Positions 3,389-14,733 of a stretch of 41,857 bases of DNA are shown here, in pieces. Source of the stretch: a virus (lineage: Duplodnaviria > Caudoviricetes); IMG/VR virus record IMGVR_UViG_3300009678_000032, positions 1 to 41,857 of that record; one strand, given 5' to 3'. Numbering within the stretch: the stretch's first letter is position 1; every line of letters begins with the position of its first letter. A model generated the notes under the pieces. That model worked only from the letters and a program-made list of their open reading frames with translations, ran no database searches and was not told where the DNA came from. A program made the position numbers and the translations under genes.

Positions 3389-3415
3389 CTGCGATCTCCT
3401 TGCGATGTGAGGGGT

Positions 3416-3437
3416 CGGGGCCGCATGCGCGGCCCCG
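3416..3437 (-). terminator. GC hairpin after the major capsid gene (terminator or mRNA stabiliser)
   Basis: CGGGGCCGC-atgc-GCGGCCCCG; no U-tract, so function is uncertain. Confidence 0.4.
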
Positions 3438-3445
3438 TAGAGATC

Positions 3446-4600
3446 TTAGATCGCGGACGCGGCGAAGAACCCGGTGACCACGCCCCACTGCTTGAGGACG
3501 GAGGTGGTCTTGGGGTGCTTCTTGAACACCTTGCCGACGCCGTAGCACATCTCGATGCCCGAGCCGGTGACGAACTGGTAGTCGTCCTCCTTCAGGAACG
3601 TCGGACGCGCCATCTGGCCCCAGCCCATCGCGACGGCTGACTGGCCGCACAGGAACACCGGGTGCGCAAGCACGGCGCTGCCGTTGGTGAGGTTGGCGTT
3701 CCAGGGGCCACCGGCCGTGACGTACGGGTCGATGTCCGGGATCTCCCTCGCGATCACGCCGTCGTACACCAAATCTCCGTCCTGGAAGATCGGGTTGTCG
3801 TTCATGCCGCGGCCTTCGCGGGGCCGGGCATCCTTGTTGACGAGCTTGAGATCCTCCTTGAGATCGCGGAAGCACAAGCCGTCGACGAAGGCCACGAAAT
3901 ACTCGCGGCCGTCCTCGATCTTGAATGGACGGATGCGCGGGTTGGCCTGCTTGGCGATGTACTTCATCAACGACAGCGCCTTGCCACTCAGCAGATCGGT
4001 GGTGGTGTCGAGCGTGTTGATGGCGGTCAGGAACGTGGTCGAGTAGTTCGCCTTGGTGGCGCCAAACAACACGCGATCGGCGTTGTCGGTCACCCAGGTG
4101 TTGCGCTGCGCGGCGCTCCCGGCCTCCCACAACAGGCCGTTGACGCGCTGACCGTTGTCACTGGCCAGGCCGGCGGGTGCCGCCTCGACCGGGATTGCCA
4201 TCAGCGCCTCGATGATCTCGTCGCGCTGCAGCTCCTTGCCCCAGTCGCTCAGGAGAGGCTTGGCCTCGCCAAAACTGTCGGCGCTGTCGATCTGCTGCTG
4301 GTACTTGTTGGTCTTGACCGCGTTGCGGGCGAAATCGACGTAGAGCCGATAGCCGTAGTCGTCGATCGCCTCTTCGTTGTCGACCAGTTTGCCGGTTGAC
4401 CGCCCGACCGCACGCAGGCGGCTGACGAGCGGGATGTTCATCTGCTCGCCGCCCTTCTTGAGCTCGTTGCGGACGCGGATGATCGCCGTGATGCTCTCGC
4501 CCATGTACGGGCTGAACAGGTTCTCGCGAACGTATTCGCGATTGATCTGCTGGGTGTAGAGCGTGAGCTTATTGTTATTTTGAACTTCAGAGAGCGCCAT
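3446..4600 (-). CDS. major capsid protein (DUF4043 / N4-gp56-like, HK97 fold)
   Basis: 384 aa; REYVRENLFSPYMG, LVDNEEAID, NPIFQDGDLVYDGVI, FLCGQSAVAMGWG, EDDYQF; follows the scaffold gene. Confidence 0.9.
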   Translation of the reverse strand: MALSEVQNNNKLTLYTQQINREYVRENLFSPYMGESITAIIRVRNELKKGGEQMNIPLVSRLRAVGRSTGKLVDNEEAIDDYGYRLYVDFARNAVKTNKYQQQIDSADSFGEAKPLLSDWGKELQRDEIIEALMAIPVEAAPAGLASDNGQRVNGLLWEAGSAAQRNTWVTDNADRVLFGATKANYSTTFLTAINTLDTTTDLLSGKALSLMKYIAKQANPRIRPFKIEDGREYFVAFVDGLCFRDLKEDLKLVNKDARPREGRGMNDNPIFQDGDLVYDGVIAREIPDIDPYVTAGGPWNANLTNGSAVLAHPVFLCGQSAVAMGWGQMARPTFLKEDDYQFVTGSGIEMCYGVGKVFKKHPKTTSVLKQWGVVTGFFAASAI

Positions 4601-4770
4601 GATTGACCCCTGTGGTCAGGCGCGCGTGCGCACAGCATGATGGGGCGCGCGAGCGCCAATGTTGCGGGATGGACATCACACGGTGCGAGGCTCTCGCGCT
4701 CTCGCGGCGCTACACCGATCTCGCTCGGTGCCAGCGTGTGCCAGGATCTCGCTCCTGGCCGGCGAGCTCA
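4601..4770 (-). ncRNA. structured 5' leader of the capsid gene with three GCGAGA-loop hairpins
   Basis: GCCAGGA-GCGAGA-TCCTGGC; GCACCGA-GCGAGA-TCGGTGT; GCGAG(A)GC-GCGAGA-GCCTCGC; plus a TGACC/GGTCA hairpin over the RBS. Confidence 0.55.
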
Positions 4771-4772
4771 CA

Positions 4773-4800
4773 GCTATAACCAGAGTTCACATCAGATCAA
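4773..4800 (-). promoter_or_regulatory. putative sigma70 promoter for the capsid gene
   Basis: TTGATC-N16-TATAGC just upstream of the structured leader. Confidence 0.45.
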
Positions 4801-5939
4801 CGGCGCTGCCCTGATGCCGGCGGCGCCATTGCACCGCGGAAGAGATCGTTGTCGGAGAGCGAGACGCCGTGGCCGTAGTCGACCGTGCCACCGTTGGCGC
4901 CGCCGTCACCTGATGCGCCGCGCATGTTCGACAGCGACGGTGGCAGCACGACCTCGTGCCTGGCCTGCGATCGCGGCTGTTGCGGCTGCTGGCGGCCATT
5001 TGGTTGCTGCGGTGGCGGAGATCCTGCGGGAGGCAAGCCGCGCGCCTGGTTCTGCGCCGCCTCTACCGCGCGCGCCAGGAATTGTGGGTTGGCCAGCGCC
5101 GCCTCGAGCTGCCGCGCCATCCACTGCTGCGGATTGCCGCCGATCTCCTGCAAGACGCGCTGGTTGTTGTACCAGTTCATGATCCGCTCGCCGGGGTCGG
5201 GATCGTTGACCACCGATCGCGCGAAGTCCGGCGCCTGCCGGCCGGCCTCGAGGAAGGCATCGTAGGCCGCCTGGAAGTTGGCCTTGCCGACCTCGATCGC
5301 GGTCATGCGGAGATTGTTCTCCAGCATGACCGCGCGCAGTCCCTGGCTGAACTGCTCCTCCATGCCGCGTTGATAGCCCACCGGGTCAATCACGGGATCC
5401 GGCAGCTGTGGAGCCTGCTGCTGCGGCGCCTGCCGCTGCGGCGGCTGCGTCATCCGCTCGACCATCTGCAGCATGCGATCGTACTGTTGCTGCATGTTGG
5501 CGAGCTGCGCCTGGTGGCGCTCGGTCTGCTCCCGCATCCGCCAGGTGGGCACCATCGGCGGCTCTTGGCCGTCGGGGCCGAGGAGTTGCGGACCCCCCTG
5601 ATGACTTTGCCGGGGGTCTGCAACCCCTGCCTGGCCTTGGCGGGCGTTGTGGTCCGCGACCTGCTGCGGCGAGGCGAACTGGCCGCGCGAATTGCGCAGG
5701 CGGCCCTCAGCGTCGAGCTGCAGCTCGTCGGGGGGTGTCCCAGGCTCCGCGGCCGGTGGGACACCCTGCGGAGCGGACGGCAGACCGCCGGGTAGGGTGG
5801 GGTCGCCGCCCGCCTCCGCGGGGTCGGACGATGGCGCGGGAGCCTCCGGCGCCATCGCACCGCGGAACAATTCCTCGCTGGTTAGACCAACGTCCTCGGC
5901 CTCGCCCATTGGGGGGCCTCCGGCTGCTGCCATGTCCAC
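4797..5939 (-). CDS. capsid scaffolding protein
   Basis: Pro/Gln-rich; RNSRGQFA, MVPTWRMREQTER, PDPVIDPVGY, DPGERIMNWY, LPPSLSN; upstream of the capsid gene; GGAGAA RBS (start 5939 or 5933). Confidence 0.8.
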   Translation of the reverse strand: MDMAAAGGPPMGEAEDVGLTSEELFRGAMAPEAPAPSSDPAEAGGDPTLPGGLPSAPQGVPPAAEPGTPPDELQLDAEGRLRNSRGQFASPQQVADHNARQGQAGVADPRQSHQGGPQLLGPDGQEPPMVPTWRMREQTERHQAQLANMQQQYDRMLQMVERMTQPPQRQAPQQQAPQLPDPVIDPVGYQRGMEEQFSQGLRAVMLENNLRMTAIEVGKANFQAAYDAFLEAGRQAPDFARSVVNDPDPGERIMNWYNNQRVLQEIGGNPQQWMARQLEAALANPQFLARAVEAAQNQARGLPPAGSPPPQQPNGRQQPQQPRSQARHEVVLPPSLSNMRGASGDGGANGGTVDYGHGVSLSDNDLFRGAMAPPASGQRR

Positions 5940-5947
5940 GTTCTCCG

Positions 5948-5967
5948 GTGATTTGCCGGCAAATTAC
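5948..5967. promoter_or_regulatory. palindrome just upstream of the scaffold RBS (candidate operator or hairpin)
   Basis: Perfect 14-bp ATTTGCCGGCAAAT at 5951-5964 within a near-perfect 20-mer. Confidence 0.4.
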
Positions 5968-6006
5968 TCCTGGAATGATTTGTTCACCATAGCCCTCAAT
6001 GAATGC

Positions 6007-6035
6007 TTGACAGGTCTCAACGTATCGTGTACATC
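6007..6035 (+). promoter_or_regulatory. sigma70 early promoter with operator-like spacer
   Basis: TTGACA-N17-TACATC; the spacer carries AACGTATCGTG, shared with other promoters. Confidence 0.75.
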
Positions 6036-6072
6036 AGCATTCATGTTGATGACGACAACAGGAGAGACCGAG

Positions 6073-6276
6073 ATGACCAGCCCGATCGATCGCATCTACA
6101 TCTTCGCCCTCGACGTCGAGCACAACGAGAGCACCCGCGTCGAGATCGTCGGGGCCGGCGGCCTCAGCGACGTCCGCTACAGCGACTTTGAGACCCGCGA
6201 CGAGGCCATCGCCTACGCCGAGCGCGTCGGCGGCTACTACGGCGCCCAAGTGGTCGAGCTGGAGCCAGCACAATGA
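6073..6276 (+). CDS. small early hypothetical protein (67 aa)
   Basis: AGGAGAG RBS; MTSPIDRIYIF...FETRDEAIAYAE. Confidence 0.75.
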   Translation: MTSPIDRIYIFALDVEHNESTRVEIVGAGGLSDVRYSDFETRDEAIAYAERVGGYYGAQVVELEPAQ

Positions 6277-6280
6277 CCGA

Positions 6281-6330
6281 CGGCACCGGCCGGGCAAACC
6301 CGCTCTTGAGCGGCGCATCCGGCCGGGCCG
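6281..6330 (+). other. intergenic stem-loop (possible RNA processing or stability element)
   Basis: CGGC-A-CCGGCCGG/CCGGCCGG-GCCG outer stem; inner CCGCT-CTTG-AGCGG. Confidence 0.45.
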
Positions 6331-6355
6331 CCACCACCCACGGAGGACCACGAGA

Positions 6356-6529
6356 ATGATCAAGGTAACCGTAGCCGGCCACGCCATCCTGACTGGCAAG
6401 GGCGGCGAGCTCGATCGCGAGCCGATCTATCGCGACGACGAGCACGCCATCCGGGAGGCCGTGCAGACCCTTGCCGCGCGCTGCACCATCGAGTTTGGCG
6501 ACGTCATCACCATCGACGTCGCGTTCTGA
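6356..6529 (+). CDS. small early hypothetical protein (57 aa)
   Basis: GGAGG RBS; MIKVTVAGHAILTGKGG... Confidence 0.7.
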   Translation: MIKVTVAGHAILTGKGGELDREPIYRDDEHAIREAVQTLAARCTIEFGDVITIDVAF

Positions 6530-6562
6530 CCACCCACCACCCACTAACCTGGAGGCCACACC

Positions 6563-6877
6563 ATGCGTGCCGTCAAGACCAAGCCCCGCGCCCTGCCGTT
6601 CTCGGTCGCGGCTACCGTCGACGCCCTTGGCGTCGTCAAGAGCGAGATCGCCTCGCTCGAGGCCGATGAGCAGCGCCTGCGGGCCCTGCTGATCTCGGCC
6701 GGCCCGGGCTCCTACAACGGAGACCTGTACGATGCCTCGGTCGCGATCGCCGAGCGCAACACCCTGGACATGGAGGCGGTGCGTGCCAAGCTAAGCCCCC
6801 AGTTCATCGCCGCGCACACGCGCACCAAGACCGTCGACATCGTCAAGGTGACGGCGCGCAAGGGAGGCGGCAAGTGA
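6563..6877 (+). CDS. early hypothetical protein (104 aa)
   Basis: GGAGG RBS; VDALGVVKSEIASLEADE coiled coil; LDMEAVRAKLSPQFIAAHT. Confidence 0.8.
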   Translation: MRAVKTKPRALPFSVAATVDALGVVKSEIASLEADEQRLRALLISAGPGSYNGDLYDASVAIAERNTLDMEAVRAKLSPQFIAAHTRTKTVDIVKVTARKGGGK

Positions 6878-6972
6878 TCAATCACTCGTTCGCCGAGGAC
6901 GTGGGGGCGGTCGTCGCCCTCACGCTCTTCCTAGCCACGATCGCCGTCTGGGCGATCATCCTGGGAGGCTGA
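6874..6972 (+). CDS. 32-aa single-TM membrane peptide
   Basis: GGGAGG RBS, GTGA overlap; MINHSFAEDVGAVVALTLFLATIAVWAIILGG; absent from the ORF track. Confidence 0.65.
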   Translation: MINHSFAEDVGAVVALTLFLATIAVWAIILGG

Positions 6973-6974
6973 CC

Positions 6975-7187
6975 ATGGAGTTCCTGTTCATCATCGTCGT
7001 CCTGGGCGCTGTCCTCTGGGCCTGGGGTCGATCCAGCGGTATCTCGATCAAGAGCTTTCATCCAATCCGACCGTGGCGGCCCCTGACGCCACCATCAATC
7101 CCGCCTGACAGCCTACTCGAGCGGCTGGCGCCGATCGGCTTTGTCCTCATCGCTGGTCTCGCCTGGGCGATCGGGGTGCTGCCGTGA
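6975..7187 (+). CDS. small membrane protein, two hydrophobic segments (70 aa)
   Basis: GGAGG RBS; hydrophobic N- and C-termini. Confidence 0.7.
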   Translation: MEFLFIIVVLGAVLWAWGRSSGISIKSFHPIRPWRPLTPPSIPPDSLLERLAPIGFVLIAGLAWAIGVLP

Positions 7188-7327
7188 CCACCGTCACGAT
7201 CACGCTGGTCGTCATCAGCGGCATCCTGCTGCTGATCGGCGCCGGCGTGTTCGTCCTGATCTGCTGGCTCGAGCACGACCAGAACAACCGCGACTACCCA
7301 CCACGCAAAGACCCACCACCAAAGTAG
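7184..7327 (+). CDS. 47-aa single-TM membrane protein
   Basis: GTGA overlap; MTTVTITLVVISGILLLIGAGVFVLICWLEHDQNNRDYPPRKDPPPK; absent from the ORF track. Confidence 0.65.
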   Translation: MTTVTITLVVISGILLLIGAGVFVLICWLEHDQNNRDYPPRKDPPPK

Positions 7328-7336
7328 GAGGCCACA

Positions 7337-7519
7337 GTGCAACGCTACATCGTTGAGATCCTGCCCCGCGGCGAGCACGCTTGGTGCCGCAACGGGCTCA
7401 CCTTTGACAGCCAGAAGGCGGCCGAGGAGTATGCCACCGAGCTCATGGCTCGCTGGTTTGGTGCCAGCCGCTTTCGGATCGTGCCGGCGCCGGGAGGTTG
7501 CGATGGCTGTGCTGGCTAG
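7337..7519 (+). CDS. small early hypothetical protein (60 aa)
   Basis: AGGAGG RBS; WCRNGLTFDSQKAAEEYATELMARW. Confidence 0.75.
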   Translation: MQRYIVEILPRGEHAWCRNGLTFDSQKAAEEYATELMARWFGASRFRIVPAPGGCDGCAG

Positions 7520-7733
7520 TATCACCCCGCTCGGCGGTCTCACCAGCGCAGAGCCTGTGCTCTCCGCTGAGGACATCCGCCGGATCAGGCTCGAGCTGCA
7601 GGATCTCGTCGAGGCGATCGGTCCCCGTGACGCCATGGGGATCGTCAACCTCGACTACCAGCAGCGCCACCGGATCGAGGCCTTCATCGAGTGGCTCGAG
7701 GATGCCTTCGGGCCAAACGAGATGGATGAATAA
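7503..7733 (+). CDS. small early hypothetical protein (76 aa)
   Basis: GGGAGG RBS before ATG 7503. Confidence 0.7.
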   Translation: MAVLASITPLGGLTSAEPVLSAEDIRRIRLELQDLVEAIGPRDAMGIVNLDYQQRHRIEAFIEWLEDAFGPNEMDE

Positions 7734-7738
7734 CGGGT

Positions 7739-7767
7739 TTGCGCCGGCAGTCCGTCAATGGTAGATT
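7739..7767 (+). promoter_or_regulatory. putative sigma70 promoter inside an inverted repeat (7743-7783)
   Basis: TTGCGC-N17-TAGATT with extended -10 TG; no ORF follows on this strand. Confidence 0.5.
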
Positions 7768-7790
7768 GAACGGACTGTCCGGCTACGCAG

Positions 7791-7898
7791 GCGCTGGTCC
7801 CGCCCACGGTCGAAGGCAATGCCCTAGGGGGACGCCGTCCCTGCACTGGGTGTGAGCAACGGGCCGTCCTTCAGTGGGTCAACGGGCGGGATCAGCGC
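7791..7898 (+). ncRNA. candidate structured small RNA
   Basis: 15-bp closing helix GCGCTGGTCCCGCCC (7791-7805)/GGGCGGGATCAGCGC (7884-7898) with a G-U on the + strand; internal stems ACGGTC/GGCCGT, GGGAC/GTCCC, GAAGG/CCTTC. Confidence 0.5.
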
Positions 7899-9727
7899 TC
7901 CTGGTACTCCAGGAGAGGCCCGGCCAGGCCGCCGGCGGCGATCGGGATCCCGAAATATCCAAACCCCGACGGATTGGGCCGCTTCTTGGTCGGCCGCAGG
8001 AACGCGCCCGGCACGTCCTCGCCCTCGGCGACCTTCTTGATCTTGTTCCCCTCCTTGTCGACCTTGGTGTAGTCCATGTGGCCGGAGGCGCGGTGCTCGC
8101 CCGCCACCTCGCGCAGCTGCTCCCGCGACATCGCCGGCATGCGCTCGAGCCCGGGGAACATGTTCTCGTGCGGCTCGTAGCGGCGCCGGATCCGGTCCCA
8201 GGTCATGTGCTGGCCGGCGAACACCCCGAGCCCATGCTCGGCCGCCCGCCGCCCGGTAGCATCGAGCGCCGCCTTGTAGTTGGGCCCCATCACCGAGACC
8301 GTCGCTGGCTCCTGCACCCAGTTGGCCTCGCGGAGATGCTCCGGCACCTTCGGGTTGAGGATACCCTCGCCGGAGTTGCTGCCCTTCTTGGGCGCCAGGC
8401 GGAGCTTGGGGTTGCGGGCATCGTTGACCAGGCCGAGCACCGCGTCGACGATGGCGCTCTCGGTGCCTGGCGTACGCTGCAGCTCGCCGAATGAACCGAC
8501 CGGCCGATCCGGGTTGTTCTTGTTCCAGAGCGCGATCAGGCGACCTTCCCAATCGGCTTGCTGGCCAGGCGAGGTGAACAGCGTGCCCTCGCGCAGCGCG
8601 TCCATGCCCATGTGCCGATCGATCGCCGACGTCATGGCCTTGGCCGGGTTCTCCCAGACCACGCCGAATGAGCCGGTTTTCATCGACAGCCCTGGCACCT
8701 GGGAGGCGATGCGCTCGGTCAGCTGCTGCCAGGTCTCGTCGCCCTGGCGCATGAAAAACGACGGATCCTGCTGGAACATCTTGGCGAGGTCGCTGATGCG
8801 GGTGTAGTCGCCCGAGCCTCTCACCCCCAGGCCGCCCTTGCCGGCCGCGTCCAGGCCGTAGCGCTGCGCGATCTTGGCGCTCTCCTCGAGCCGGCCGCCG
8901 GGGCCCTTCTGCGGGGCGATCGTGCCGAGCGGGATCGGCGACTGTGCCGCGAGATCCTGGATCAGTGCGGGATCTCGCGCCCGCAACCGCGAGGCTGCGA
9001 GCTGGTTGGGGAACAGCGGATTGTTGGGCGACGTCATGCCAAACGTCAGGCCGGACCAGGCGCGCTCCGGCGTCATCTGGTCGGGCGTCAGCGACGCCGA
9101 GAGCTTGCGCTGGATGTCAGCGTGCAGCGACGGGTCGACCCGCGACGGATCGATCGGGTTGGCCTTGTTGTGCAGCATGTCGAAGTAGGTGAACTTGCCC
9201 TCGGTCCCGCCCGGCACCTGGAACTCGCCGCCACCCTGCGCATACGGGTAGGTCTTGGGCTTGGTCAGCGGCCCCAGATTGGGCACGCCGGCGATGTCAC
9301 CCACGTCCGCGAATTCACCCGGCGTCCACTCCTTCGGCTGCTTGCCCTTGTAGGTGGTCGGGATGTCCTCGAGCGGGTTCATCGACCCGCGCAGGTTGGG
9401 ATTGCCATAGAGCATCGGCCCTTCGGTCGCCTTGCCGACGATCGCCGGCGCGTCAACAGAGCTCGCCGACTTGCCGACTTGCCGCGCCGACTTGCCGGCG
9501 CCCTTGGCCGCCGCCTTCGCGCCCTTGACCGCGGCACCGCCAGGCAGCACGCCGACGGCAGCATCCCACAGGAAGTCCTGGATCTCACGCTCGGTCAGCC
9601 GGCCGCGCAGCGCCTGCACCGCCTGCTGCAGCGGGTCGGTCACCACGCTCGAGATCCCGCGGCCGATCGTCTCGACGCCGCTCTGCGTCGGGTTAGGTGG
9701 CCTCAACGCGCTCCACGGATCAGCCAT
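7892..9727 (-). CDS. head-module protein with a putative HhH-GPD (Ogg2-like) DNA glycosylase/AP lyase domain (611 aa)
   Basis: HhH hairpin VPGLSMKTGSF followed by AIDRHM (Lys/Asp pair); GLTFGMTSPN and NYKAALDATGRRAAEHGLGVFAGQHMTW resemble Ogg2 N- and C-terminal helices. Confidence 0.7.
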   Translation of the reverse strand: MADPWSALRPPNPTQSGVETIGRGISSVVTDPLQQAVQALRGRLTEREIQDFLWDAAVGVLPGGAAVKGAKAAAKGAGKSARQVGKSASSVDAPAIVGKATEGPMLYGNPNLRGSMNPLEDIPTTYKGKQPKEWTPGEFADVGDIAGVPNLGPLTKPKTYPYAQGGGEFQVPGGTEGKFTYFDMLHNKANPIDPSRVDPSLHADIQRKLSASLTPDQMTPERAWSGLTFGMTSPNNPLFPNQLAASRLRARDPALIQDLAAQSPIPLGTIAPQKGPGGRLEESAKIAQRYGLDAAGKGGLGVRGSGDYTRISDLAKMFQQDPSFFMRQGDETWQQLTERIASQVPGLSMKTGSFGVVWENPAKAMTSAIDRHMGMDALREGTLFTSPGQQADWEGRLIALWNKNNPDRPVGSFGELQRTPGTESAIVDAVLGLVNDARNPKLRLAPKKGSNSGEGILNPKVPEHLREANWVQEPATVSVMGPNYKAALDATGRRAAEHGLGVFAGQHMTWDRIRRRYEPHENMFPGLERMPAMSREQLREVAGEHRASGHMDYTKVDKEGNKIKKVAEGEDVPGAFLRPTKKRPNPSGFGYFGIPIAAGGLAGPLLEYQER

Positions 9728-9731
9728 CGCG

Positions 9732-9899
9732 TCACCCGTGGATCGGAGCGCCGAACACTCTCCAGCCGAGCAGCAGGAACAGCACGAACAGCAGCAGCAT
9801 GCTGCCGATCGGGCCGTAGCCGGTGGGCGACCGCCAGTCCCAGAGGCCAAACAGCAGCCACAGCAGCATCAGGATCCAGAAAACCAGTCCGAATGTCAT
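9732..9899 (-). CDS. 55-aa two-TM membrane protein
   Basis: AAGGAGG RBS; MTFGLVFWILMLLWLLFGLW...LLLFVLFLLLGWRVFGAPIHG. Confidence 0.8.
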   Translation of the reverse strand: MTFGLVFWILMLLWLLFGLWDWRSPTGYGPIGSMLLLFVLFLLLGWRVFGAPIHG

Positions 9900-9910
9900 G
9901 GCGTCCTCCT

Positions 9911-10282
9911 TCAACCCATCATCGCGGGCGGTGCGCCAGTCGTCATGCCGGGAGGCTGGCCCGGCGCACCGCCGCCACCCATCAGCGCCGCGAGGGCTGC
10001 TTGCAGCTGCTGCGGGGTGGGCGGCTGGCCAGTCTGCGCCTGGATCACCATGGCGAGCTGGCCGATGAGCTGTCCGATGTCAGGCCCTTCCTGGCCGGGA
10101 GGTGCCATGCCCTGCGGCATCGCACCCTCGCCGGGCAGCGGCATCGCGGTGGCGTCGAACCCTCCACCACCATCCGGGGTCTCGATCGCGCCAGGTGACG
10201 TCGGTGGCGTGTTGGAGGCGGCGCTGGCCTTCATCGACTGCGGCGATGGCGGCACGCGCATCTGCGGGTGGTTCTGCATCAT
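9911..10282 (-). CDS. low-complexity Pro/Gly/Gln/Met-rich protein
   Basis: ATGA coupling in the portal operon. Confidence 0.65.
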   Translation of the reverse strand: MMQNHPQMRVPPSPQSMKASAASNTPPTSPGAIETPDGGGGFDATAMPLPGEGAMPQGMAPPGQEGPDIGQLIGQLAMVIQAQTGQPPTPQQLQAALAALMGGGGAPGQPPGMTTGAPPAMMG

Positions 10283-10821
10283 CCAATCCCTGTCGGCTGC
10301 TGTTGGGCGCCGCGCGGCCAGCCATACCTGGACGGCATCGTGTCGAACGCATTACCCGGCGCAACGGACGGCAGCGGCACGCCAGCATCTGGCAGACCGC
10401 CGCCGGCGACCGGAGGCATCTGAGCGCCGGCAGCGGGGGGACTACCGGCTCGACCTCCACCGATCAGCATTTGGAACATGCTCGCCAGGCTGGATGGCGG
10501 CCATGGCGGCAGCGTCGGGGCGGGCAGCACCGGCTCGCCGGGCGGCTGCGTCTGCGGACCCTGGCCGCCGCCGCTCTGGTCAATGCCGGCGCCCGGCATC
10601 GGCGACAGGAACTCCGGTTTGGACCAGCCCGTGCTCGAGCGCTGGGGCACGCCTGGCGCCGCGGGAGCACGCTGCGGCTGTCCGGCGCCTGGTTGGCCGA
10701 ATGGCATCGGCGCCGAGGGCCGATCGAACAGGCCCTGTTGCCCCTGCCGCGGCTGGCGCGTCGCCTGGCCACCCTCGCCGGTCGCGATCAGATCCCGTGC
10801 CATGTCGGCAAAACTGGCCAT
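10279..10821 (-). CDS. low-complexity Pro/Gly/Gln-rich protein
   Basis: GGGAG RBS right after the portal stop; MASFADMARDL... Confidence 0.65.
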   Translation of the reverse strand: MASFADMARDLIATGEGGQATRQPRQGQQGLFDRPSAPMPFGQPGAGQPQRAPAAPGVPQRSSTGWSKPEFLSPMPGAGIDQSGGGQGPQTQPPGEPVLPAPTLPPWPPSSLASMFQMLIGGGRAGSPPAAGAQMPPVAGGGLPDAGVPLPSVAPGNAFDTMPSRYGWPRGAQQQPTGIG

Positions 10822-10833
10822 GGGTGAGCTCCC

Positions 10834-12960
10834 TTAGAACGGCGGCCGTGGCGGCTGGGGGCCGCCTGGCAGCGACGTCGGTGGTGGTCCTGGAGGCGGC
10901 CCTGGAGGTCGTGAAGGCCCTCCACCCGGTGGGCCTGACCCCATTGTCCCGGGTGGAGGCCCGGCGGGCCCGCCTGCGCCAATGGGAGGAGGCCCGCCGG
11001 GAGTTGGTAGTACACCGCCCGGGAGGCCACTCTCAGTCGGCAGACCACCAAATTGCTGCTCGTTCTCGAGATAGTCGCCCAGGCCGAGCGTTGCCTGGTC
11101 GAGCTGCGGCGCCAACGGGTGCCAGGCCATCGGGGCCTTGGTGAGGGCGTCGATCGCGTCCTTGATCGCCTTCGCCTTCTTGCCGGCAACCTCGGCCTCG
11201 GCATCCTCGATCGCAAGCTTTTTCAGCTCTTCCTTCTGCGGATCTGGCGCGTTCTCCTGCGCCAGTTTTTCCATCCACTTTTTCTTGATCTGTGGCGGCA
11301 GCTGCGAGAGCTCGATCATGAGCTCCGGCGGAATGTTGGCGCCCTTGCCGGCCAACGCCACCAGCTGGTCGAACGTGTCGATCTGCGTGGTGATGGTGTC
11401 GGCGCCTTCGTCGATGATGATGTTGACGTCGAGCTGCGCCACGTTGTTGACCATCATCGGACCCCGCATCGGGTCGACGCGCAGGCCGTTGATCTGCACC
11501 AGCTGGTCGTTGCCGTCGGGATCCGTCACCTTGATCCAGCGCTCCATCGTCCACCACTTCTTGAGCGCCAGGAACGTGTTGCGGTAAACCCGTAATTTCC
11601 AGTCCTTGAGGTCGATGATGTAGCTGCCGAGCTCGGCAATGCCGGCCTCCTGCAAGAGCTTGATGGCGCGGCCCGACTGCTCGCCGACCGTCTGGCCGAG
11701 GAGCTGCGGGTTGGGGCCAAAGTTGTCGATCTCCTTCTTGGCGTCCTCGAGGAATAGGAGCTGCCCCTGCATGTCAGCGAGCTGCCGGGCGTCGTCGAAC
11801 TCAGGCTTCTCGCTGTCCCACTCGATCACGCCGTCGGCTTTGATGCTCTCGCGCCTGACCTTCTCGACGTCGATCGAACCGCGGCGCGCCATCAGGCGCC
11901 GAGTGTTGAGGAGGTGCAGCGCCTTCGAATAGCGGTGGTTGATCTCGTCCTGGGTATCCTTCATGTCGCGGAAGAACCCGTAGCGATCACCATCGTGGTC
12001 GACGTACGCCGAGACCATGTGGAATTTGCTGATGGTCTTGTCGTCCTCGTCGACGAACGGGCTCACGCCCTCCATCAGCTTGACGCCGTACGTGTGCAGG
12101 CACCAGCGCCACTCGCCGTCCTTGAAGTACCATTGGTCGACCAGCCGGATCCTCTTCTGGTCGCTCGAGATCCACTTGACGCTGCGATCGTTGTCCTCGG
12201 CCAGCGCGGTGCCGGCCTCCATCGACATCGACCCCTGCAGCTCTTCGCTCTTCTCCGGCACGATCATCTTCGCGATCTCGAGGTCGACCCACTTTGAGGT
12301 GCCCTCGAACATCGCGTCGCCGAAATCAGGATCGAACGATCGCGGGTCGTAGAAGAACGTGTCGGTGTGAACCCGCGTCAGCGTGACGTCGTAGTCGTTG
12401 TTGCGCATCACCTTCAGGCCGAGCTCGATCCCGCCGATGCCCTCGCGCGCGGCGTCATTGGCAACCTTGGAACTGAGTGCCTCCCATCGGGAGTTGTCCA
12501 GCACGTAGCGGATGCACATGGTCGCGAGATCTGCATGCCCCTCGAACCGCGGCGTGCGAGCGTAGGCCTTGGGATCTTGGCGCATCCGCTCGACCAGACC
12601 GACCACGCCGTTGATCTTCTTCTTGACGCGGTTCTTGGTGACCTTGAGTTGATTGCGGGCCTTGAGCTTGCGCAGCTCGTCCGCGGTCCACTGGTCGCCG
12701 TGGTAGTAGTGGCGGCTCAGCCTCTTCTCGGCGACCTCCCAGTGCTTGACGTAGAGATACATCTCGTACTGCTTGCGCAGCTCGCCGATCGGCAGGAACC
12801 CATCCTCGCTGTCGGTGGCGGTCGGGTCGGTCTTGGTAGCTGCGAACGGCTCGCGTTGGCTCTGCAGCGTCGGCGGCATGCGCAGCGCCGAGGGGGCGAG
12901 GAATGGCATCTGGGAGCCGCCGGCGCCGACGTAACCGTACGCGCCCGGGCTGTCCATCAT
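10834..12960 (-). CDS. portal protein (P22-like) with a Pro/Gly-rich C-terminal tail
   Basis: YYHGDQWT, NRVKKKINGVVG, FFYDPRS, RYGFFRDMKDTQDEINHRYSK, QSGRAI; directly after TerL. Confidence 0.92.
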   Translation of the reverse strand: MMDSPGAYGYVGAGGSQMPFLAPSALRMPPTLQSQREPFAATKTDPTATDSEDGFLPIGELRKQYEMYLYVKHWEVAEKRLSRHYYHGDQWTADELRKLKARNQLKVTKNRVKKKINGVVGLVERMRQDPKAYARTPRFEGHADLATMCIRYVLDNSRWEALSSKVANDAAREGIGGIELGLKVMRNNDYDVTLTRVHTDTFFYDPRSFDPDFGDAMFEGTSKWVDLEIAKMIVPEKSEELQGSMSMEAGTALAEDNDRSVKWISSDQKRIRLVDQWYFKDGEWRWCLHTYGVKLMEGVSPFVDEDDKTISKFHMVSAYVDHDGDRYGFFRDMKDTQDEINHRYSKALHLLNTRRLMARRGSIDVEKVRRESIKADGVIEWDSEKPEFDDARQLADMQGQLLFLEDAKKEIDNFGPNPQLLGQTVGEQSGRAIKLLQEAGIAELGSYIIDLKDWKLRVYRNTFLALKKWWTMERWIKVTDPDGNDQLVQINGLRVDPMRGPMMVNNVAQLDVNIIIDEGADTITTQIDTFDQLVALAGKGANIPPELMIELSQLPPQIKKKWMEKLAQENAPDPQKEELKKLAIEDAEAEVAGKKAKAIKDAIDALTKAPMAWHPLAPQLDQATLGLGDYLENEQQFGGLPTESGLPGGVLPTPGGPPPIGAGGPAGPPPGTMGSGPPGGGPSRPPGPPPGPPPTSLPGGPQPPRPPF

Positions 12961-12971
12961 GTCACCGCTCC

Positions 12972-14480
12972 CTAAAAGGCCTTGTCGAACCCGCGCTGAT
13001 CGGGCTCATCGTGCCTGGCGTAGTCCGAGAATTTACCCTTGCCTTCCGCTGTCGTCGGCTTGCGTCCAGGCGCGACAATATCCAGCAGCTGGCCCACAAG
13101 CCCCAACGCATCGACCTGGTCATCGTGCTTGCCATTCGGGAATGCCAAGAGCTCAGACCGCAGCGCCGCATAATAGGGAGCGTTCATATCGACGTATAGA
13201 CCGTCCATCGCCATGCGGCCCTGCATCGATCGGGCGCGGATCGCCTTCTCGCCGCGCGTCGGGAATTTGTGGATCTTGACCCAGGCGCGCTCGGCCATCA
13301 TGCGCTGCTCGAGGAACGGCCCGACGCCGCTGTCGATCTGGCCGAGCTCGGTGGCGAAGTCCAGCGGCTTGTATTTCTTGACCATGGAGGTGACCTGGCG
13401 CACCCAGCGATCGGCCGAGGCCTGCTGGCGCCAGACGTCGAGCAGGTAGAGCCGGTTTTGCGGATCGAACCCCACGATCACGATCGCGGTGTAGTCGCCC
13501 TTGCCCTCGGTCACCGCGAAGTCCGCACCGCCGTAGCAGGTGAGCGTGTCCAGCGCCGGCAGCTTGCGGATCGGGCGCAGCCAGCCCTCCTCGAAATAGG
13601 TGCCCGTCGGTGGCGACGGCCGGCCCTGGTAGAGCGCAGACCACACTGCCGGCAGCTGCGTCGCCTTCTCGCGTTTGAGCACGTCGGCATAGCCGTAGTC
13701 GTCGTCATCCCAGAGCATCTCGCCCTGGTTGCGACCGAGTGGATCGTTGGCGCTGTCGCACTCCGCGGGGATGTGCAGCAGCCGCCACCGGCTCGACCCC
13801 TTCTCGTTCAAGATCCTGCCGGCCAGGTCGTCCTCGTTCCACCGGGTCTGGATGAGCGCGATGCGGCCGCCTGGTCGCATGCGTGGCATCAGGTCCATCT
13901 TGTACCATTGCCACACGCTCTCGCGCTTGACCTCGGAGGCGGCGTCGAGGTGCGAGCGGATCGGATCGTCGATCAGCGCAATGTCGGCACGAAAACCGGC
14001 GATGCCGGTGTCGACGCCGGCGGCGTAGTATTCCGCACCGTTGTCCACAGCCCACCGCCCCGCCGCCTTGTTGTCACCGACCAGCGCCATCTTCAGCACC
14101 GCGGATTGGGTCGCGACCAGGTTGCGCGCACGCCGGCCAAACCTCTCCGCCAGCTGTACCGTGTGCGACGCCGCCAGGATCGCCGAGCCCGACACGCTCT
14201 GCATCAGCCAGGGTGGGAACAGCACGGAGGTGTAGGTGCTCTTGGCCGATCCTGGCGGCATGACCACCATCAGCCGATCGGTGTCGTTGCGGGCAAGCGC
14301 CTCGAGCTCGGCGATCAGCAGCTTGTGGTGGGCGGCCGGCTCGTAGCCGCAGTTGATCGCCCACTCAGTGAGCGATTTTCGGATCACCCGGCGACGGTAC
14401 TGCTCTTCCACCTGCTCGAGTTCGTCGTAGCCGGTTGATGTCGGCGAGGAGCTCCTCGTCGCTGATGCTGTCCAACTCAC
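12972..14480 (-). CDS. terL: terminase large subunit (start approximate)
   Basis: Walker A MPPGSAKST, Walker B LIDDP, IQTRWNEDDLAG, nuclease motifs GADFA and HDDQVDAL. Confidence 0.95.
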   Translation of the reverse strand: MSWTASATRSSSPTSTGYDELEQVEEQYRRRVIRKSLTEWAINCGYEPAAHHKLLIAELEALARNDTDRLMVVMPPGSAKSTYTSVLFPPWLMQSVSGSAILAASHTVQLAERFGRRARNLVATQSAVLKMALVGDNKAAGRWAVDNGAEYYAAGVDTGIAGFRADIALIDDPIRSHLDAASEVKRESVWQWYKMDLMPRMRPGGRIALIQTRWNEDDLAGRILNEKGSSRWRLLHIPAECDSANDPLGRNQGEMLWDDDDYGYADVLKREKATQLPAVWSALYQGRPSPPTGTYFEEGWLRPIRKLPALDTLTCYGGADFAVTEGKGDYTAIVIVGFDPQNRLYLLDVWRQQASADRWVRQVTSMVKKYKPLDFATELGQIDSGVGPFLEQRMMAERAWVKIHKFPTRGEKAIRARSMQGRMAMDGLYVDMNAPYYAALRSELLAFPNGKHDDQVDALGLVGQLLDIVAPGRKPTTAEGKGKFSDYARHDEPDQRGFDKAF

Positions 14481-14733
14481 GGCGGTTGCGATCCTCCTCC
14501 GCGTTGTAGCTCACCGGGGCGCCCCAGGCGCGCTCGAGCAGGCCTTTGGCGGCGACGACACGGGCCGTGGGGCTGTTCTTCTTGTCCCGCATGATCGTGC
14601 GCAGCACCTGCAGGGCCTCGATCGAGAACGTCTTGGCGAGTTCCAATACCTCTTCAAGGGTGGCAGGCGCTAAGGCCTTGCCGCCCTTTGGCACTCCGCC
14701 TGGGTTACCGCTCTGGCCCTTCTTGAATGCCAC
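14365..14733 (-). CDS. terS: terminase small subunit (DUF5681-like N-terminus)
   Basis: FKKGQSGNPGG motif, ARVVAAKGLLERAWG, SISDEEL; immediately upstream of TerL. Confidence 0.85.
   Translation of the reverse strand: MAFKKGQSGNPGGVPKGGKALAPATLEEVLELAKTFSIEALQVLRTIMRDKKNSPTARVVAAKGLLERAWGAPVSYNAEEDRNRRELDSISDEELLADINRLRRTRAGGRAVPSPGDPKIAH

Follow-up and report, generated by a model that had tools for sequence, protein, structure and literature searches.

The window analysed here is a virus record of 41,857 bp, complete and with direct repeats at its termini. Downstream of its portal gene it carries a 611-aa ORF whose product, judged from predicted structure, belongs to a genuine but unannotated family of enlarged HhH-GPD DNA glycosylases from phages. 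The protein very probably has the HhH-GPD fold with a working active site and is probably delivered in the virion. Our leading, still tentative, reading is that it is packed and injected to excise a marked guanine and is aimed at non-self DNA.

The virus is P22-like as judged by its portal and head closure, and no tyrosine integrase was found in the window. The minus-strand order is terminase large subunit, portal, two Pro-rich ORFs, a membrane gene and the 611-aa gene (Table 1), followed downstream by a gap of ~1.9 kb with plus-strand ORFs, then a scaffold-like gene and the major capsid gene. The frame of the 611-aa gene is open, the remaining five frames of the same interval carrying 2-17 stops, and its GC3 of 0.90 resembles that of the structural genes. 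A longer form of the protein initiated from a TTG at 9850 is unlikely, because the ATG at 9727 sits 4 nt after the 55-aa membrane gene, for which NCBIfam gave no match. The motifs quoted in an initial annotation of this DNA are present in the ORF, with VPGLSMKTGSF..AIDRHM encoded at 8698-8609, and its statement that the gene ends the operon agrees with the strand switch after the gene; a search for promoters and terminators returned none exceeding chance. The Pro/Gly/Gln-rich pair that follows the portal (123 and 180 aa, 9911-10821(-)) resembles in style the small slot genes of loci L191 and L198, and it is possible that these ORFs encode disordered head cargo. The interval between the 611-aa gene and the scaffold-like gene, 5940-7891, is variable in a close strain, and its small plus-strand ORFs (6003-6191, 6188-6529, 6563-6877, 6975-7187 and 7353-7733) gave no family match. 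One contig, possibly the source of the window itself, matches 3400-14500 without differences. In an aquifer strain the domain is kept, with 72 differing letters over 1665 bases and 31 over 617, and the leader segment 9452-9652 is exchanged for 216 other letters.

Table 1. Features of the 611-aa gene, its predicted product and neighbouring virion genes
Feature	Position in window	Strand	Remarks
Terminase large subunit	12972..14480	(-)	
P22-like portal	10834..12960	(-)	
Two-helix membrane protein	9732..9899	(-)	55 aa; immediately upstream of the 611-aa gene
Predicted HhH-GPD glycosylase cargo protein gene	7892..9727	(-)	611 aa
Leader, residues 1-99	9431..9727	(-)	Gly/Ala/Lys-rich, variable, low pLDDT
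Enlarged HhH-GPD domain, residues 100-595	7943..9430	(-)	Predicted model; Ogg2-like core at residues 193-520
S233-P-N235..N241 loop	9005..9031	(-)	S233 210/211, N235 201/211
G299-L-G301-x-R303 wedge motif	8819..8833	(-)	G301 215/215, R303 116/215
HhH hairpin V344-F354	8666..8698	(-)	Predicted nucleophile K350 at 8678-8680; from conservation and motif
D370-R-H372-M373	8609..8620	(-)	Predicted catalytic Asp at helix start, and His
Q506-x-x-x-W510-D511..R514..E518-P-H520-E521	8165..8212	(-)	Putative base pocket, and loop at the position of the Ogg2 end
Gly/Ala hydrophobic tail with acidic end	7895..7951	(-)	Similar tails on other slot cargo
Major capsid protein	3446..4600	(-)	Past the cargo slot

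The fold assignment, to the two-lobed helical architecture built around an HhH motif, is carried by predicted structure. A full-length model reached a pLDDT of 84.9 with disordered ends, and a model of residues 100-596 reached a pLDDT of 95.3 and a pTM of 0.93. Structure comparison (VIA) against 48,161 PDB representatives placed HhH-fold proteins in all of the top 26 rows, with the first unrelated row at Z 3.0. The best match is Ogg2 of T. maritima (3n0u; Z 12.7, rmsd 3.4, 198 of 209 residues aligned), human OGG1 (8vx4) and C. acetobutylicum OGG1 (3f10) score Z 8.7 and 8.5, and lower matches include MUTYH, NTHL1, EndoIII and queuine salvage enzyme (Z 8.0 and 7.6). A further structural comparison agrees, with HhH folds in its top 22 rows. 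The proposal of an HhH-GPD fold with Ogg2 as the nearest solved structure is therefore borne out by VIA, but not by Foldseek, which against the PDB gave no match at E <= 0.001 with either model and ranked mostly HhH enzymes at the top, though without significance. The Atlas's own model of the protein also falls on viral Ogg-HhH clusters. A profile built from 16 Ogg1-like proteins of bacteria was also compared with the family: the HhH Lys aligned, as did the wedge Gly (P 0.006; reversed control 0.31), and the Asp fell a few columns out of register. Residue equivalences given below are drawn from motif order, spacing and aligned ranges rather than from atom-level superposition.

Motif conservation in the protein is well past chance. 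In an alignment of 220 homologous domains, K350 (217/217), D370 (216/216), G346 (216/216) and D511 (215/215) are invariant, so that the catalytic Lys and Asp named at the outset are indeed conserved, and nearly the same holds for R514 (215/216), W510 (214/215), H520 (214/215), Q506 (213/215), H372 (211/216) and E518 (208/215); the wedge residue R303 is poorly kept. The hairpin carries the Lys typical of bifunctional HhH-GPD enzymes and reads G-L-x-x-K, not the G-x-G-x-K of the initial annotation. According to the predicted model, helices at 333-343 and 349-359 bracket the hairpin, D370 lies about 20 residues past the HhH Lys at the start of a helix (371-379), and the chain runs ~100 residues beyond W510. 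The leader is likely a packaging or linker region, and used alone as a query it found no relative.

The active site is OGG-like, yet the protein is not an Ogg2. In PMC3397491, the base pocket of human OGG1 is described as Gln315/Phe319 with His270 and that of Ogg2 as Asp194/Trp198, and the 8-oxoG sensor as Gly42 in OGG1 and, in Ogg2, a strictly conserved C-terminal Lys that reads N7-H. The phage protein shares with Ogg2 (T. maritima 3n0u, M. jannaschii 3FHF/3KNT; PF22175) the HhH Lys, the Asp-x-His and, putatively, a stacking Trp four positions after a polar residue. However, the phage domain is ~490 aa long with large insertions, is encoded among virion genes, has a Gln (Q506) where Ogg2 has the Asp ahead of the Trp, the i,i+4 spacing being kept, and lacks the C-terminal Lys, at whose position there is the conserved E518-P-H520-E521 loop. 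Because residue 520 of the model aligns to residue 207 of the 209-residue TmOgg chain, this EPHE loop appears to stand at the sensor site. The Ogg2 identity first proposed is rejected, since the C-terminal Lys is absent and the PF22175 profile, which matched 3 of 14 controls, does not match the phage protein. With OGG1 (human 8vx4, C. acetobutylicum 3f10) there is a common order of Gln-x-x-x-aromatic, Asp-x-His, Asn loop and wedge Gly, and by order and spacing the counterparts of Gln315/Phe319, His270 and the Asn loop are present as Q506, W510, H372 and N235. Judging by motif order and the description in PMC3397491, S233-P-N235..N241 may correspond to the Asn (NNN) loop of OGG enzymes, which occupies the space vacated when the base flips out. 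As to the N-terminal A-domain of OGG1 with its Gly42 sensor, the VIA alignment reaches into the N-terminal part as a range, without residue pairs, and the OGG_N Pfam model has no match in the 611-aa protein. Four residues past the Lys the phage family has Phe/Leu where human OGG1 has Cys253, and the Arg that reads the opposite cytosine is conserved in OGG1 whereas its phage wedge counterpart is present in about half of the homologs.

Searches of Pfam, PHROGs, NCBIfam and PADLOC gave no match for the protein, nor did the PDB searched by sequence and by profile, and there was no carrier among 50,697 cultured-phage records. There are 82 close homologs, and clustering at 50% identity divides the family into 290 clusters, the best 150 of them listed; 57 of 220 homologs are at least 1000 aa long. 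A genome contig search returned only two matches, a 4.3-kb Verrucomicrobiota MAG contig and a C-terminal fragment in a Roseomonas MAG, neither of which points to a host. No publication on a virion-packaged phage HhH glycosylase, or on DUF7178, was found in a literature search whose coverage excludes most subscription journals; for the former, the supplements of PMC5512222 and of the Dag preprint could list the domain. DUF7178 (PF23802) is the nearest named family, its Atlas clusters being closest by features (score 0.91), and some of its members are annotated as glycosylase in Gordonia and Mycobacterium phages. The two families have S-P..N, G..K, I-D and Q..W motifs in equal order and occupy the same cargo slots. 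However, proteins of the glycosylase family described here are over twice the length of DUF7178 and carry the EPHE loop, the PF23802 HMM does not match them, and a profile comparison with one shallow DUF7178 clade of 27 sequences gave P 0.13. At one locus (L098, G329:C12:266710-267198) a DUF7178 domain lies within a 3606-aa open frame, and a distant relative falls inside the portal-annotated gene of Tunturiibacter phage Tunturi_3.

Genomic context argues for delivery in the virion. A set of 79 viral loci was reduced to 25 groups at 70% identity, and 186 neighbour representatives were annotated. Virion genes lie within three genes of the glycosylase gene in 22 of the 25 groups, either as portal or terminase within three co-oriented genes (13 groups) or as other virion or ejection genes (nine); two groups have lysis genes only, one has no annotated neighbour, and none of the 25 has replication neighbours alone. 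A scan of 61 homologs, picked mostly for length and with some domain matches under the Pfam cut-off, found fusions to LPD23 (9), ART-PolyVal (8), tail lysozyme (3), PcfJ (3), SLT (2) and PBECR5 (2), and the glycosylase domain is C-terminal in 23 of the 54 homologs in which it could be placed. Polyvalent proteins are encoded among late genes, and their packaging is inferred (Iyer et al. 2017, PMC5512222); in the main text of that catalogue "glycosylase" occurs 0 times, this domain class being absent from it. The family resembles polyvalent and MuF cargo in its late-gene context and in the fusion of homologs with LPD23, ART-PolyVal, PBECR and lysozymes, whereas the window's copy is stand-alone. 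Given these fusions, the virion-module location and the slot swapping in sister clades, virion delivery is probable, as the initial annotation had supposed; the link that it drew to MuF toxins falls away, the MuF Pfam domain being absent from the window protein and the 61 scanned homologs.

The initial annotation also raised the question of whether relatives swap other effector domains into the slot beside the portal, which is what we see in sister clades but not in the window's own portal lineage. In the lineages of other carriers the slot is variable in cargo, including DUF7178-type cargo behind shared leaders. The first 155-188 residues of one carrier are 53-74% identical to six proteins that have different C-terminal domains, and the leader of a second carrier is common to three more slot proteins. 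Among 94 slot representatives, DUF7178 matched eight (seven above the cut-off) and LPD23 two, and others have HhH-like motifs as judged by eye; the label "HhH-like" for these other slot families denotes motifs and partial DUF7178 matches only, and profile comparisons with them were not significant (P 0.08-0.46). Many slot proteins close with a Gly/Ala hydrophobic tail like that of the window protein. The same slots also hold an unannotated cargo family of ~350 aa (L214:3492-5123, L221:6324-7841, L226, L262, L266, L295) that has a leader in common with a glycosylase carrier and no Pfam match, and a divergent HhH-like subfamily with the pattern TTGG..KR..F..IDEQM..Q..GW (L225:10600-12036, L288:4273-5988, L217:6342-8402, L314:6971-8392) that is frequent downstream of the portal and for the most part escapes Pfam. 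In the window's own portal lineage, with relatives at 43-61% identity, 58 of 80 loci extend to the scaffold or capsid gene and 53 of these 58 are without a gene of at least 150 aa in the slot; three loci have long slot inserts, which look structural. The glycosylase gene is found in 0 of 50 records of this lineage (13 near-complete) and is dispensable there. Effector swapping within the lineage was thus not found, the slot being mostly empty.

How might such a protein act? In the reading that we favour, the protein would be packaged into the head via its variable leader and tail, and the injected enzyme would flip a base while N235 fills the gap; D370 would then drive excision, K350 would form a Schiff base, and the strand would be nicked. 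That the target is a guanine-type base has a slightly better than even chance, because the i,i+4 spacing seen for Gln315/Phe319 and Asp194/Trp198 in OGG enzymes recurs in Q506/W510, and the D370/H372 spacing is kept too. The EPHE loop takes the place of the 8-oxoG sensor, and for this reason the mark may lie on the N7/C8 edge, with 7-deazaguanine derivatives the first candidates and oxidised or alkylated G the next. Granting a guanine-type substrate, the balance tips narrowly toward non-self DNA as the target. QueD is absent from all 50 carrier records (24 near-complete), so the carriers' own DNA is likely without a 7-deazaguanine mark, although this is weak evidence because QueD is uncommon among phages generally. 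Hosts with 7-deazaguanine DNA are a minority, and the pocket residues would be just as suitable for repairing 8-oxoG in the phage's own DNA. Dag1 (K118, D132, D184-x-x-x-W188) degrades 7-deazaguanine phage DNA, as stated in its preprint (10.1101/2025.10.29.685425), and therefore an OGG-like active site can serve another guanine mark. Dag1 and Dag2, as described in that preprint, are likewise divergent HhH enzymes in conflict, with the Lys, the Asp and an i,i+4 acidic/Trp pair; however, they are host-encoded anti-phage defence, whereas here the enzyme is phage-encoded cargo.

An injected enzyme could instead clean up the phage's own incoming DNA by taking off oxidised or host-added guanine adducts. 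The delivery evidence is the same for both readings, the closest solved folds belong to 8-oxoG glycosylases, and the phage protein retains the Gln/Trp/His pocket. Nevertheless, we consider this unlikely. The Ogg2-type 8-oxoG sensor is missing, a Lys lyase would nick the sole genome copy, and Fpg is already present in hosts. In addition, one slot that swaps several divergent HhH families and unrelated cargo resembles an arms race, not housekeeping.

Another reading is a methylation-directed restriction glycosylase that cuts host-methylated sites, for example CcrM G(m6A)NTC, the phage escaping with its own sites purged. The window contains 0 GANTC against 61 expected, and the observed/expected ratio is below 0.2 in 41 of 79 carrier loci versus 15 of 80 portal relatives; every one of the 13 complete portal relatives without cargo lies at 0.42-0.72. 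Among whole or near-whole genomes, those with HhH cargo show the stronger depletion, though many non-carriers share it. A second clade has 11 carriers of HhH cargo, 10 of which do not exceed 0.07 (Mann-Whitney p 0.007, uncorrected; 7/11 partial), and an N6/N4 methylase is found in one of 36 carriers compared to 8 of 25 non-carriers. However, 7 of 12 non-carriers of the second clade likewise have ratios no higher than 0.12. Furthermore, integrases are present in 11 of 13 portal relatives and none in the window, and in 8 of 36 carriers versus 16 of 25 non-carriers, so the comparison is confounded by lifestyle. Sister enzymes with identical key residues occur in genomes at 0.00 and 0.55, or 0.04 and 0.8, the depletion does not follow the enzyme tree, and a clade of giant homologs is without it. 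About half of pelagiphages show unexplained GANTC loss, as reported by Seong et al. (PMC9516812). An m6A-GANTC substrate, listed in the initial annotation, therefore retains its correlate, the absence of GANTC from the genome, but loses its tie to the gene under these controls, and we judge a methylation-directed enzyme improbable. GANTC loss as a gene-specific signature is largely rejected, since its distribution follows lifestyle and clade more closely than it follows the gene. The loss suggests a lytic phage whose host is an alphaproteobacterium, and it is a minor lead to substrate.

It is very improbable that the protein is a late DNA repair or processing enzyme located by chance in a morphogenesis operon and not packaged: the window's copy is stand-alone without a recognised virion domain and the giant-protein clade has replication genes downstream, but homologs are fused to lysozyme, SLT, LPD23 and ART-PolyVal and occupy three separate virion-module slots. 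Equally doubtful is an HhH fold that acts on free guanine nucleotides or RNA, as the queuine salvage enzymes among the fold matches might suggest, or that shields DNA by binding without turnover, since the hairpin, Asn loop, wedge and invariant Lys/Asp are all retained, which fits catalysis on duplex DNA.

The reading of an injected enzyme against marked guanine in non-self DNA can be extended further, to a point that we regard as speculative and on the unlikely side. The injected protein would be a restriction glycosylase that depends on modification and destroys the DNA of hosts or rivals where this bears an epigenetic mark (7-deazaguanine or CcrM-methylated GANTC). Phages would exchange members of several HhH families for one another in virion slots that stay fixed, and would be protected themselves by lacking the mark. 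If true, such an enzyme could help explain GANTC purging in many alphaproteobacterial phages. Bacterial DNA glycosylases have recently been shown to be anti-phage weapons, and a phage-delivered glycosylase would be their mirror image. With its invariant active site, confident model and many clusters, the family is well defined and ready for expression and modified-base screening; a new base specificity would serve the mapping or editing of DNA modifications.

Other motifs are also rare in these genomes. In the window GAAAC occurs 0 times (23 expected) and GAAGC 11 times against 49, counts that together with GANTC suggest that the host is alphaproteobacterial and that a further motif is avoided. 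For the giant-protein clade, a search for other avoided motifs found none specific to it. In one clade of carrier loci (L025-L039, L042, L048, L065), the pooled loci are without GANTC, CCAGG and several 6-bp palindromes.
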